DNA of 64,000 bases from Euglena gracilis. Taxonomy: Eukaryota. Below the pieces are notes generated by a model. It had not been told where the DNA came from, did no database searches, and saw nothing but the letters and a program-made list of their open reading frames with translations. Of the stretch, positions 2,579-59,900 are shown piece after piece (position 1 is the stretch's first letter; each line of letters begins with the position of its first letter). The stretch lies in the NCBI GenBank assembly GCA_039621445.1, contig CP154954.1, positions 6,521,425-6,585,424 on the forward strand. Reading direction: 5' to 3'. Position numbers and translations under genes: made by a program.

Positions 2579-5500
2579 GAGGTTGAACTCAGCTGGTACG
2601 AATGTGTGCCCGCTCCAGGGGTTTATTTGCCTCCTCTTCCGACTGAACATTACCGGAAAAGAAACCTCTGGGCGGCTCACCGTGATTCGCAGAAAGATGG
2701 CGATGATGTAGGAGGCCAACGAGGACTGGGCTCTGGCGCAAAGAACATAGCGACTTTGCGAAGGGCTCATTTCTGACTGGAACTGAAAAGCAAGGATTCA
2801 CATGCAATCTGGAAGAATGCTGCCCTCGGAGCAGCCAGCATTCTTCCATCTGTCATATATCTGTCGTATGGACAGATATATACATGTATAACATCTGTCC
2901 ATATGTCGCACAATATCAGCAGCCGAGGCAGCCTGCAGACCCCAGCGCAGACCGGTGGCCGTAAGGGAAAACAGCGCGCCGAGCACGGTGTCGTTGGCGA
3001 GGCCAGGCACACCGACGAGGAAGGAGATGACGACACACAGGACGATGGCCCGGACGGGGGAGCCCGTCCGCCGATTGACGTGGTACCAGAACCGGGACAG
3101 CGGCAAGGCGCCGTCGCGGGAGAAAGAATAGACCTGCAGCGGGGCACAGAACAGCTGCCTGGAGCAAAAAAAAAACTGCAAAAAATAAACTGCAAAAACA
3201 GTCGTTTTCCACAGGTGGATGGCACAGGAGGGCGAGGCTGGCATATATATATATATATATATATATATATATATATATAGAGATATATATATATATATAT
3301 ATATATATATATATATATATATATATATATATATATATATATATATCTATATATATATATATATATATATATATATATATATATATATCTATATATATAT
3401 ATAATATATATATATATATATATTATATAATATATATTTATATATATGGCCAAACATTTGCCTTTTAATAGCAAACATTTGCCTTCCAATTTCTGTGTCG
3501 CTGGGGCCAAAAGGATGCCAGCTTTTCCCTCTGCCCCGGACGTGATCCAACTTCGTGGTTCGACATGCTTTCATCACCAGAACTGCAATCATAAAAGCTG
3601 ACTGGGAAAAACACAACAGTACATCGGCTGCACACCATGCGAGCGGCAGAAGTGAGGTTGGCACAATTACTGCACTCGATGGCCACGAACGTGATGACGT
3701 TGCACAGCACGGCGAGGGGGACCCCCATGAGGGAGACCCAGAGGGTGCTGGCAGCGCCCACCGCGTTGTCCGAATTCGTGAGGTCATCTGCACCAGGGCG
3801 TCGCTTGCCGACCCCTGGGGGGGGGGGGTCCAGCTCAGAGGCTGGAAAAGCTGCTGGCTGGACCCCCTCCTCTCCCCAGTAGGGTGTAATGTGATGCCTG
3901 GCGGGGCAGGGGTTTTTCTTAAGACTGGGGGGGGGTCCCCCCACCCATCCACCCCCTGGGGGGCCCCTGGCGGGGGGGGGGGGGGTCCCAGGGGACCCAC
4001 AAAAAAATGGTCGAAAAATTGCGAAAAATGCTAAAAATAGCACTTTTCAAAAAATTTCGGCGCCTTCTGCGCCGAAAAGTATATCCAACCCCCCTCCCTG
4101 GGGGTCCACGACTAAAAAAAAACCCTGGGGGGGCATGGCATCACTTAACAACCCCACCCCTGGGAGTCTCCCAGCTGGAACTGAGCTCAACCCAGGGTCA
4201 ACCCATCTAAAAAAAAAAAAACCACAGAAAACTCCCCCAAAACTGCCAATTACAAAAAAAGGGCAATCTCCTGGCGCGACACTTCCCCAGGGGGTCAACC
4301 GAGTTGAAAATAAAAAAGCAGCCAAGGAGCCCCCTCCTTGATCCCGGACATCCTGCCCTCATATTGAACCCGGCCCAGGGGCTGGGGGCCTTCGACACCA
4401 GTGACAAACGCCCTGCTCCATATCCTGGATGGCGAAGTTCAGGCCCAGGATGAAGATGACCCCCGGCCCCCAGGCTTCCGTTTCGCTGAGTGCAGCCCCA
4501 CCTGGAACGATCCCGGCGGGTTAACTGGCAGAAAGGCAAGCACAGTTGGAATCTACCTTTGTCACAGGGTTGTGTTTGGGGGGTGCCAAAAGGGGAGAAA
4601 CTACCCGAAAAAAAGAGAAACAATTCTCAGCAAAACATGGCACCAGGGCACCTAATCAAAAAACTTTTCTGGTGGCGTACTGTGTGCACAACAGTTTCCT
4701 GAGCGGCTGCACATCACATGGTGGGGCGCAAGGGAAGCCTGGCCAGCACAAGGCAGTTGATCACCGAACCGATCATGGCAAGGGGGGTGGAACAGAACGG
4801 TTGGATTTCAGCAATCTGGTGGTTGCCAGGATTGCCACAATGGGGGTGGATCATTGGGAATAGAATGGACACCAGCAATGGCTCAGGCGGCCGAATTCGC
4901 ACTTAAGGGTTTTTTCTTTGTGCATGGGCACTAAGGCGCGCATTGCCGTTTTTTACGAAACCCCCAGGTCCCTGTTTCCCCAAAAACAGGAATTTGCTCA
5001 TTTTTCGCCCTCGTGACTTCAAAGTCCCCAAGGCCACACAGCCAAAATAATTTTCTTTGTGTTAATTTGCATGGTGGTGCAAAAGAGCCCACAAAAGCCC
5101 ACAAAGAAGCTTAAGTGTGAATTCGGCTGTGTAAGGGTGGGGAAGGGGGGTTCAGAATACCCCCCCCCCCCCGGAAACTGCACCGCCTGAATTGTTTTGA
5201 CCTGGACCAACAACTTCAGGGGGGTTCTAACATTGACAAAAAAACTTGCAATTGGATCGTTGTAAAATGTGCTCAAAACGTGGATTCGAAGATTTTTGGA
5301 AACTTTTTTTGGACAGTTGGGTTCTTAAACGTCAAATTAGTTCATATTTTGGGTATTTGGAGGGGCTCAGTCTTTGGGGTGGGGTCAAACAGGATCGTTT
5401 GGGAAGGGGCCCCCAGGTAGTTGGATCATTTGTGCCATCATCTGTGTTGGATGGGAGGGGGGTCTTTAGGAACTTTTTGGGGGGGGTCTTTAGGAACCAA

Positions 5501-56999: not shown

Positions 57000-59900
57000 G
57001 AAAACCCGATGGGTGATCTGGTAATCCAGAACCCGATGGTGGTTGGTATGATCGCGAATGCGATACATGACCAATACCAGGTGTGGAGTGTTGGCTCCTT
57101 CCTCGTACAAGGTTGGAATGTTGAATTTCTTGGTGGAGACTCGAATTTTCGAGCGGGGGGTCAATTTCCTCATCGGAAATGTGTTGTGAAAAGTGAGTTT
57201 GTGGTGTGGGCAAAAGCAAAGGTGGTACAATTCGCGTTTTCGCGGGTGGTTGTACCAAATTCGCGGTGGAGGTAGGGATTCCTACTCCAGAAATGGTAAT
57301 TTGAGAACGCGATTCCGGGACATTTGGAATACCAACCGCAGCGCTTACCGCGGTGGGTGGTTGCACAACCGGTACCGGAGTGGACATTTTATCCAAACTC
57401 GCGGACAAGTCATGCACCGTTTCTTCCAAATGTTCCACCAACTGGAGTTGGCCGCAAATACGGTCAACCTCAGTCTCCAAATGCCTAACGCGTTTGCGGT
57501 AACGGGAAAAATCGTCCAAGTGTGGTAACTTTTCAGAAACCAAGTGTAAATCTTGGACAAGTTGTCCTTGGGACTCCTCCACATTCCGGAGTTGACCCGC
57601 AAGCGCTTTTACTGCATTTGAGACAATTTGTAATTGGTGGAGTGAATTGGTGGGGATTTCCGCGGTGGTGCGCGAACTTTCCGCGGTTGGCTTTTCCAAC
57701 AACACAGAAATTCGTCCATCCAACCGTGAAACCTCATCTTGCATGGATTGGGCATTCCGATTCACCGATTCCTCAAGTTGAATCAAACTTGTGCAAAATG
57801 CTTGCAAGGTTTCCTTGTTGTCACCAAGCATTTTGTTGTAAAATGAGCGAAACTCCGGTGACTCGGATATCCGAGCGCACGAAATGTTGGGAAGTGAGCG
57901 AATTTCCGCTACTGTGGTGGACAACAAGGTGCAACGGGTTTGTAATTCCCCAATAGCGGCTTGAATACCACTAATGTCGGGAATTCGCTTGGAAAGTGCG
58001 GAAACATGCTCCTGCAAACCGACAACGGTGGCATTAATACCGCCAATGTCCGTTTGCATTTGTTGTTGCGCGAAATCCAACCATTGTGCGCAATCCGCGA
58101 TTTTCGCGTTCAAGGTGGCATAGCTGGCACTTCGTTTAAAACGAAGTCAAAAAAACAGGTTTTTTTTTAAAAAAACATGTTTTTTTAAAAAAAACAAAAA
58201 AAACGTCATTGAGGGTCCAGGGCAAAAAAAAATTTTGTCTTTAATTTTAGCTTTTTTTGCCCATCCTCGGTCAGAGAAAGATATCAAATTTGGGATGTTT
58301 CAACTTGAAACATCCCAAAATGGCAGAAAAATGCCCTATTTTGACCATTCTTGTTGAAGACAACCAAAAGTATTGGTTTTCAAGTCATTTGAGCTAAGGT
58401 TGGTTCACCCTTGCGATCAAAGGCAAAATTTGGACCATCATTTTCCCCTTCGTTTTTTTTGCCGTTTTTTTTGCCCGTTTTTTTTAATAAAAAACAAAAA
58501 AACGTTTTTTTAAAAAAAACAAAAAAACGCCAGCTATGGTTGTACCATTTTGTCCCAGTGGCCTGCAAAGGCCATGGGCGTGCAAAGGCCCCCCCCCCTG
58601 ACCATTTTGCTCCAGTGCCTGCCAAGTCACTGGGCCTACAAAGGCCCCCCTGTGGGGGTGTCTCCCCCGCATCCCCCCCGCGTCCCCCCCTGCGTCCCAC
58701 TTTGGAACCAAAATTTTGTTCTCGAGACGGCCAAATTCGGGAGGCTGATTCCTAATTTCAGGCAAATTTGAGGTTGGTGATTCCTAATTTGGTGTGGGTG
58801 ATTCCTAATTTGCGGTGGGTGATTCCTAATTTGGGGTGGGTTAGTCCTAATTTGTTGTGGTGGAATCCTAGTTTGACTAAATTTCTCTCACGGCAAATTC
58901 CTAATTTTGATGTCCCAAAAATGGCGTCTCCCCCGCGTCCCCCCCCCCCCGCGTCCCCCCCCCCGCGTCCCCCCCCGCGTCCCCCCGCGTCCCAGACACT
59001 CCCTGTGACACCATTTTGGCCTGTTGCACCATTTTGTCCCAGTGGCCTGCAAAGGCCCTGGGCCTGCAAAGGCCCCCCCTGACATTATTTTGTTCCAGAG
59101 TGCAAAGTCCCTGGGCCTGCAAATACCCCCATGAGACACCAGTTCAAAAGATTGCACCATTTTGCTCCAGTGCGCTTTGGGTTGCTTCATAGCTGGCACT
59201 TCGTTTAAAACGAAGTCAAAAAAAACACGTTTTTTTAAAAAAAACATGTTTTTTTAAAAAAAACAAAAAAAACGCCATTGAGGGTCCAGGGCAAAAAATT
59301 TTTTTGCCTTTAATTTTAGCTTTTTTGCCCATCCTCGGTCAGAGAAAGACACCAAATTTGGGATGTTTCAAGTTAGTTTGGAATGGTTTCAAGCCAAAAT
59401 GGCAGAAAAATGCCCTATTTTGACCATTCTTGTTGAAGACAACCAAAAGTATTGGTTTTGAGCTGAGATTGGTTCACCATTGCGATCAAAGGCAAAATTT
59501 GGACCATCATTTTCCCCTTTGTTTTTTTTGCCGTTTTTTTTGCCCGTTTTTTTAATAAAAAACAAAAAAAAACGTTTTTTTAAAAAAAAACAAAAAAACG
59601 CCAGCTATGCAAGGTGGTTAATCCATCCTGATTTGCGGCACAATGGCAGGATTTTTGCTCCAAGTGTAGGATGCGTTCCTCCAAAACCTGGATTTGCGAA
59701 CGGGGAACAAAATTTTCTTGCACTTTCGCCTGAAATTGCTTCAAATGCTCGATTTCCGAGCCAAGATGCAAAATCCGTTGTTGGGCTTCTTGGAAAGAAG
59801 TGGTGAGTGCGGCAAAATGCTCAACCGCAACAAAGTTACCGATTTCCGGCATTTTGGGGGTGGCATTTTGCGCTTGTAACTGGTGCTGCAATTGCAGTAA

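Follow-up and report, generated by a model that had tools for sequence, protein, structure and literature searches.

In a 64,000-nucleotide stretch of the Euglena gracilis genome (contig CP154954.1, positions 6,521,425 to 6,585,424 of the forward strand; hereafter the window, numbered from its first letter), three nonconventional introns of one zinc-finger gene were compared with a population of inverted-repeat elements that start with CAG, end with CTG and are flanked by 8-bp target-site duplications (TSDs). The nonconventional introns of this gene are probably (at a probability of about 0.6) decayed insertions of hAT-type MITEs (miniature inverted-repeat transposable elements), and such elements would be born spliceable. 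The observed basis of this proposal consists of TSDs, terminal inverted repeats (TIRs), a transposase remnant, an empty site, RNA-defined junctions and TIR-like intron ends. Its literature basis consists of the splicing code, the ~12-bp stem and the sufficiency of these features in 50-bp synthetic introns (PMC12501133; this and the other articles below are cited from excerpts of their text).

The proposed mechanism would run as follows. In the window, the source population would be represented by seven elements, all of the CAG...CTG form and all duplicating 8 bp: six are MITEs, and the seventh, internally deleted, retains a transposase remnant. Insertion into an exon, in either orientation, would give a transcript TSD(t1-t8)-CAG...CTG-TSD(t1-t8), in which pairing of the TIRs would bring both TSD copies together. 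The nonconventional machinery would take its measure from the CAG:CTG stem (3 nt on the upstream side, 5 nt on the downstream side), and cutting after t5 of both copies, followed by joining, would eliminate the element and one TSD copy and restore the pre-insertion mRNA. Later, the intronic parts of the TSDs and the TIRs would decay and the stem would be kept. A preliminary description of this DNA had stated that removal of such an element with 3 nt upstream and 5 nt downstream deletes one TSD copy, and the arithmetic of this statement is exact and matches the code of PMC12501133: on an 8-bp TSD, cuts placed 3 nt ahead of CAG and 5 nt beyond CTG fall after t5 of both copies, and thus exactly one copy is removed together with the element. 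We infer a hAT-MITE ancestry for the introns and expect that splicing would remove a MITE newly arrived in an exon.

CAG...CTG elements and their probable hAT affinity

The window (~50% G+C, zero N) was scanned, blind to the finding, for sequences with a CAG start, a CTG end, a TIR identity of at least 11/14 and at most one mismatch between the flanking 8-mers, and the chance level for TSD identity was obtained from 20 first-order Markov simulations of the window sequence. The scan returned the last six elements of the following list, in which no strand is assigned; the first was scored separately.

8226-8351: MITE, 126 bp; CAG...CTG ends, TIR 10/14, TSD GCGGCACC/CCGGCACC (7/8)
14910-15280: MITE, 371 bp; TIR 13/14 (CAGGCCATTGCTTA), perfect TSD CTTCCCAT; interior 77% identical to MITE 24190
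15533-15647: MITE, 115 bp; TIR 11/14 (CAGGGGTTTTC), perfect TSD TTAGTTAT
23110-23399: MITE, 290 bp; TIR 13/14, perfect TSD GTTAGGGT; within an 8.6-kb GT-AG intron
24190-24719: MITE, 530 bp; TIR 13/14 (CAGGCATTTGCTTA), perfect TSD GACCGGTC
26786-27079: MITE, 294 bp; TIR 13/14 (CAGGCTTTTTTTTA), TSD GTCCACCC/GTGCACCC (7/8)
38794-40465: non-autonomous hAT-type element, 1672 bp; TIR 14/14 in the scan, perfect TSD CTGCAGAT

The seven CAG...CTG elements with 8-bp TSDs, five perfect and two (8226 and 26786) at 7/8, had all been named in the preliminary description, and six of them were recovered by the scan. Over 321 TIR pairs of the real sequence, the flanks were identical at 8/8 in five, at 7/8 in one and at 6/8 in four, and the simulation averages (n=20) were 0, 0.05 and 0.75, respectively; with five perfect TSDs against none in the simulations, the elements of the preliminary description are real and greatly exceed the chance level. 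A 9-bp flank repeat was found in no TIR pair of the window. All 14 termini of the seven elements start with CAG, and the TIR identity ranges from 10 to 14 of 14. A single degenerate MITE-like terminus (CACAGCATTGCTTACCGGGGG...) lies at 14017-14050 on the plus strand with no obvious partner, and suggests older decayed copies beyond the seven counted.

Alignment of reads and contigs covered positions 22501-42500 and used two probable RNA contig sets (X15 and X17), a raw RNA-seq run (X21) and a DNA run (X1). The 1672-bp element, which has the 15-nt sequence CAGACCTCTCCTTAG at both ends and subterminal repeats of the GATACAC type, is accompanied by its empty site in the DNA contigs of X1: a joint 38785>40466, present in five DNA contigs, skips 1680 nt (1672+8), and 8 letters fit on either side of it. 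Because the joined form is also found in DNA, this joint represents an empty-site copy and not a splice, and splicing of the hAT element was ruled out as its explanation. The element sits in a 326-codon open reading frame (ORF) of another repeat (38168-38793 and 40474-40830, plus strand), for which Pfam gave no family. This host repeat is flanked on both sides (37980-38110 and 40800-40930) by arrays of a ~27-nt unit (CTGTCTTGGAAATCGTTTTACACTAAC), and its uninterrupted copies occur in DNA and probable RNA contigs.

Raw RNA reads with long poly-C or poly-G loose ends accumulate at G/C homopolymer tracts (22990, 25228, 29139 and 37598-37615), which is probably a mapping or library artefact. Several of these tracts adjoin MITE ends (GACCCCNGGGGGG motif), and such tracts recur regularly in the subterminal parts of the MITEs.

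The hAT affinity was examined with the coding remnant of the 1672-bp element.

39046-40265, minus strand: transposase remnant; aligns, across a frame change, with residues ~22-443 of 719-aa homologs

According to the preliminary description one of the elements carried a hAT transposase. What the 1672-bp element holds is a truncated, frame-changed remnant with a 344-codon minus-strand ORF, and the link to hAT runs through intermediate homologs. The remnant is without a 9-aa block (DGASVLLSG, which includes the second catalytic-type Asp block) and without the C-terminal part, so the window copy cannot be autonomous. Five close homologs of 719-904 aa were found (E 1e-81 to 1e-102), and a profile of the remnant family matched 894 proteins at E<=1e-3. 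Ten long, weaker profile matches out of the 150 listed were scanned with Pfam, and zf-C17orf113 was present in nine and Dimer_Tnp_hAT (PF05699) in seven at E<=1e-3, six of these seven exceeding the curated cut-off. The motifs D..CxxH..SCE(Q/R) were read by eye in the homologs of the remnant. No transposase came up among PDB sequences when the remnant or the family profile served as the query; an AlphaFold model of the 719-aa homolog (mean predicted local distance difference test score 52) was too poor to test the fold, and a language-model look-up of the remnant gave hAT-derived clusters at 0.84-0.89, which serve as a lead only. Judged from these sequence comparisons, the remnant family is probably a divergent hAT lineage by transitive homology via the intermediate homologs. 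TIRs of hAT transposons are short, about 10-25 bp, and commonly start with CAG, and hAT transposases combine an RNase-H-like DDE core with a dimerisation domain at the C-terminus. Assignment of the window elements as putatively hAT-type is supported by the TSD length, the CAG termini and the transposase lineage of one element.

Nonconventional introns of the zinc-finger gene and their ends

RNA reads define one expressed minus-strand gene in 22501-42500, which encodes four RanBP2-type zinc fingers and whose coding exons are separated by three nonconventional introns (a, b and d) and a GT-AG intron of 47 nt (c). All features in the following list are on the minus strand.

32370-32599: first coding exon of the RanBP2-type zinc-finger gene (RNA joints, restored frame)
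31971-31899, 31851-31719, 31351-31248 and 29699-29622: further exons (RNA joints)
31972-32369: intron d, nonconventional, 398 nt, slide 2; joint 31971>32370; 5' end CACCCCATTGCTTAG
31852-31898: intron c, conventional GT-AG, 47 nt, slide 2; joint 31851>31899; negative control, ends not TIR-like
31352-31718: intron b, nonconventional, 367 nt, slide 4; joint 31351>31719; CAGGCATTTTTTTTA...AAACAAAAGGCCTG, TIR 12/14
29700-31247: intron a, nonconventional, 1548 nt, not slidable; joint 29699>31248; ends CGC...GTT, TIR-like
20976-29621: GT...AG intron, 8646 nt, inferred from a loose end at 29622

Each of the four joints (29699>31248, 31351>31719, 31851>31899 and 31971>32370) was supported by 53-175 raw reads of X21 and was also present in the RNA contigs of X15 and X17, and none was found in the DNA contigs of X1. 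Introns a, b and d, with borders other than GT/GC-AG, are therefore removed from RNA (raw RNA reads; 0 in the DNA run). The reading frame and the zinc-finger motifs are restored across every junction of the gene, and splicing of introns d and a rebuilds NLNYASR|LVCNRC and CPQCG|NHNYASRKKCNRC, respectively, which match uninterrupted repeats within the gene. Among the four introns of the preliminary description, 31720-31354 and 32370-31973 were found in raw RNA reads, with the joined forms absent from the DNA run. The former is intron b in the 3/5 register (31354-31720) and the latter is intron d in the register of that description (31973-32370), and both registers are within the permitted slide of 4 and 2 nt, respectively. 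Intron 31247-29700 is nonconventional, RNA-defined and additional to those described before.

Intron a contains a nested repeat of ~1.4 kb (29741-31124) with inverted ends of ~190 bp and poly-G tracts, of which a second copy lies at 62354-63468 (segments 88-96% identical) and a partial third at 22152-22979; without it the intron would be ~164 nt. The loose end at 29622 (151 letters in contigs) has a 30-letter consensus that matches 20946-20975 exactly. The stop codon of the gene is the last codon of exon 29699-29622 and the 8.6-kb intron follows directly, so that this large intron, which contains three of the MITEs, lies in the 3' untranslated region. A metagenome scan for the orthologous zinc-finger locus, in which empty intron sites were sought, returned only four distant zinc-finger matches of 37-51% identity.

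In an ungapped terminus test, the register was fixed by the published rule (the first 3 nt at the 5' end and the last 5 nt at the 3' end being skipped), and positions 4-17 of each intron end were compared with the 12 termini of six elements, with every window position as the null. The best identities were as follows.

Intron a, 5' end: 10/14, P 0.0085
Intron a, 3' end: 9/14, P 0.033
Intron b, 5' end: 11/14, P 0.0017
Intron b, 3' end: 9/14, P 0.033
Intron d, 5' end: 11/14, P 0.0017
Intron d, 3' end: 3/14, P 0.99

MITE-TIR-like ends were thus seen in five of the six nonconventional intron ends in the 3-nt/5-nt register. The Fisher combined P for the six ends is 2e-6, a value to be read with the two ends of one intron not being independent. 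In an end-anchored, gapped test against 14 termini, four of the six nonconventional ends gave P<0.025, and all four ends of the two GT-AG introns gave P>0.14. The exact 10-mer CCATTGCTTA has exactly two occurrences in the window on both strands (~0.12 expected by chance in 128 kb), one at positions 5-14 of MITE 14910 and the other at positions 5-14 of the 5' end of intron d. Intron b was also recovered by an RNA-blind TIR+TSD scan (TIR 12/14, flanks 6/8).

The stem of intron b has seven of eight pairs, with spacers summing to 8. Intron a likewise has seven of eight pairs, with a six-pair outer run at spacers 4/6 (one pair further in); on the 3/5 diagonal its paired positions differ on both sides from the MITE consensus, and these paired differences may reflect compensatory change. 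Intron d ends in CAC...ATG and has an eight-pair stem further in. The preliminary description had placed a CAG-type stem 3 nt in and a CTG-type stem 5 nt from the end of the introns, an arrangement which strictly holds for intron b and does not hold for introns a (CGC...GTT) and d (CAC...ATG).

The other two introns of the preliminary description are listed here as candidates, both on the minus strand; all four pairs of flank 8-mers quoted in it read as written.

9478-9723: candidate intron or old MITE; CAG...CTG pair, TIR 11/14, flanks 6/8
2611-2673: candidate intron, 63 nt; both ends 9/14 to MITE TIRs, flanks 6/8

As for the remainder of the window, Rfam and tRNA scans gave zero matches, and a Pfam search with 20 long ORFs gave no family. 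The longest open frame (56689-58146, minus strand, 485 codons) is coiled-coil-like and unconnected to the introns and MITEs; it gave a Pfam match to NPV_P10 (E 7.7e-10), and a protein search found one partial homolog, named 'chromosome segregation ATPase' by its source, which yielded no exon map.

Splicing code and alternative origins

The nonconventional code was defined by knock-ins as 5'-N3CDG-/-CH'GN5-6|R plus a stem (Nomura et al. 2025, PMC12501133). According to the excerpts of that article, the spacers are 3 and 5 nt, no change of the 5' spacer is tolerated, and 50-bp synthetic introns with CAG/CTG, 3/5 spacers, a 12-bp stem and the purine are spliced; the code pattern is present in 61.2% of nonconventional introns, and 39% lie outside it. 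From its counts, slidable nonconventional introns were computed as 378,539/466,382 (81%), against 44% for independent uniform bases. Intron b fits the code N3-CDG...CH'G-N5-6|R, introns a and d do not, and a purine starts the downstream exon in all three. In either orientation, the ends of all seven elements obey the CDG/CH'G rule, and 8 of the 14 element orientations have a purine following N5.

The general idea of a MITE origin is already known. A MITE-like origin has been proposed since Milanowski et al. 2014, who stated that no transposable elements had then been identified in euglenids (PMC3935182), and a 2024 review described the motifs CAG (+4 to +6) and CTG (-8 to -6) as TIRs and also noted TSD-like repeats (PMC11282704). 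The word 'hAT' has 0 occurrences in the texts of PMC12501133 and PMC11282704, and a full-text literature search requiring hAT together with Euglena returned no paper. In the excerpts of the literature found (PMC3935182, PMC11282704, PMC11170887, PMC12621601, PMC12455990 and PMC12501133), no transposon superfamily, TSD length or actual genomic MITE family is named for nonconventional introns. The hAT identity, the match 8 = 3 + 5 and the shared TIR families appear to be new.

Several observations weigh against a hAT-type MITE origin of these introns. The published 3' spacer tolerates 6 nt, one extra (PMC12501133), and only one of the three introns fits the published code, since introns a and d are without CAG/CTG. 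The 3' end of intron d, apart from its score in the ungapped test, has its TIR core 2 nt off register, which implies that 10 flank nt are removed and not 8. A comparison of introns b and d with the rest of the window showed no internal similarity to anything, MITEs included; intron a stood outside that comparison with MITEs, and its interior matches only another long-TIR repeat. No perfect-TSD element was seen spliced among the RNA joints of 22501-42500, where none lies within a transcribed exon, candidate 9723-9478 reached only 5/14 at its ends in the ungapped test, and the intron sample consists of three nonconventional introns of one gene. Regarding the superfamily, direct Pfam searches detected no hAT family in the remnant or its five close homologs at E<=0.1. 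The TIRs of the MITEs (CAGGC.../CAGGG...) are unlike that of the transposase-bearing element (CAGACC...), and MITE queries gave no match in the interior of the 1672-bp element, so that the hAT assignment of the six MITEs is based on TSD length and CAG ends only.

The flank 8-mers, regarded in the preliminary description as TSD relics, speak weakly for a MITE origin of the introns. They are GTGGGGAT/GTGGCAAC for intron a (5/8 identical), GTGGCAGA/GTTGCAGC for intron b (6/8) and CTCACGGC/GTCCCGAC for intron d (5/8), and the values of 6/8 and 5/8 given earlier for 31720-31354 and 32370-31973 therefore stand. The identity within introns a, b and d is 16/24 (mean 5.3 of 8; 2e-5 versus uniform chance), and the two GT-AG introns gave 3 and 2 of 8. 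The cross-intron identities (3, 4, 6, 3, 3 and 4; mean 3.8 of 8) are elevated too, so that the within-intron excess is modest and the TSD-relic signal weak; the flank repeats of the three introns are suggestive only, and part of the signal may come from a shared junction or target preference in place of TSD relics. The target preference of hAT transposons is nTnnnnAn. T at position 2 and A at position 7 were found in 5/7 and 3/7 of the element TSDs and in 3/3 and 2/3 of the mRNA 8-mers at introns a, b and d, respectively, all of them small numbers; such a pattern would agree with this preference.

Some of these points are what coincidence would predict, namely that only CAG/CTG and generic stems are common to introns and MITEs, that 3+5=8 is numerology, and that the resemblances come from chance, low complexity or a junction consensus. 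The elevated cross-intron 8-mer identity, the T-rich TIRs, the failure of one of the six intron ends and of the 9723 candidate in the ungapped test, and the missing internal homology of introns b and d to any MITE are all in line with it. We consider it improbable: an exact 10-mer lies at the same offset in an intron and a MITE, with ~0.12 chance occurrences expected in 128 kb, P<=0.033 was reached in five of six ends against none of the four GT-AG control ends, and the TIR+TSD scan recovers intron b.

An older rule exploited by transposons is an unlikely explanation too, although one to be taken seriously. Nonconventional splicing would then predate the transposons, and hAT-type MITEs would pass its filter and accumulate in genes; the introns would still be MITE-derived, and the rule itself would not be a system for excising hATs. 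Diplonemids, too, are reported to have noncanonical introns whose ends pair (PMC12621601), and the 3' spacer of 5-6 nt, together with the 39% of introns outside the code, suggests that the machinery is not tuned solely to 8-bp TSDs. No point was found against this explanation; all observations are common to it and to splicing matched to hAT insertions, and only the direction of co-evolution differs. The reverse direction, by contrast, is very improbable. MITEs would in that case be DNA copies of excised introns, arising for instance when circular intron RNA is reverse-spliced and then reverse-transcribed, and nonconventional introns have indeed been reported to be excised as full-length circles (PMC11282704). 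Re-inserted introns would bring their own N3 and N5 and would not duplicate a new target, but unrelated sites are perfectly duplicated over 8 bp around five of the elements, three MITEs are inside a GT-AG intron, one relative bears a DNA transposase remnant, and the 1672-bp element has a DNA-level empty site.

Derivation of the introns of this gene from hAT-type MITEs thus stays the preferred explanation. The preliminary description had gone further and taken the nonconventional rule as an RNA-level excision of hAT insertions. The geometry and the TIR-like ends are in its favor, and on the other side stand the lack of a perfect-TSD element seen spliced and the lack of interiors shared between introns b and d and the MITEs. 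In its full form this would mean that euglenid nonconventional splicing is in effect an RNA-level precise excision matched to hAT geometry (a cut after base 5 of both 8-bp copies), that exonic insertions of hATs or MITEs would all be neutral at birth where TSD position 6 is a purine, that such insertions would be the main engine of the roughly 70% nonconventional introns in Euglena genomes, and that the superfamily is hAT. We hold this wider proposition tentatively, at somewhat below even odds.

Comparison with known systems and implications

In maize, exonic Ac/Ds elements (hAT) are reportedly removed at the RNA level via cryptic spliceosomal sites, as Giroux et al. are said to have found in 1994, and this removal is usually imprecise; by contrast, the geometry of the elements in this window would be predicted to give exact restoration. 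The hAT superfamily (Ac, hobo, Hermes and the Buster/Charlie lineage) shares with the window elements the 8-bp TSD, short CAG TIRs and subterminal repeats, and the relatives of the transposase share a hAT dimerisation domain and a zf-C17orf113-type finger. Unlike known hATs, the remnant family is too divergent for a direct Pfam match, and the window copy is deleted and non-autonomous.

Euglenid nonconventional introns described in excerpts of PMC3935182, PMC11282704 and PMC12501133 resemble those described here in their non-GT-AG borders, paired ends and TSD-like junction repeats, and the difference is that actual hAT-type elements with 8-bp TSDs are found here beside introns carrying TIR-like ends. 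A further likeness is to the introners of Micromonas and Aureococcus (Huff et al. 2016) and to other transposon-derived introns (Fritillaria and Amoebophrya; PMC11282704), in which a TIR/TSD DNA transposon turns into an intron as it inserts and part of the removed sequence comes from the TSD. The spliceosome removes these introns, and one of the splice sites is taken from the TSD (3 nt in Micromonas introners, 3-5 nt in Amoebophrya; PMC11282704). They also form near-identical families, an introner family consisting of many near-identical introns in unrelated genes that match a mobile element from end to end, whereas the rule here is stem-measured and no near-identical intron family was seen in this window, in which only the termini of introns b and d resemble MITEs.

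The origin of euglenid nonconventional introns has been an open question since the 1990s. The proposal of a hAT-MITE source is testable with existing resources, namely an annotation of 466,382 nonconventional introns and an assay based on knock-ins into an exon (PMC12501133). If hAT-type MITEs are the source, a single insertion event would account for the 3/5 spacers, for the CAG/CTG motif and for the junction repeats that are often seen, and these introns would be a case in which a transposon gives rise to introns by way of a structure-measured cut made outside the spliceosome.

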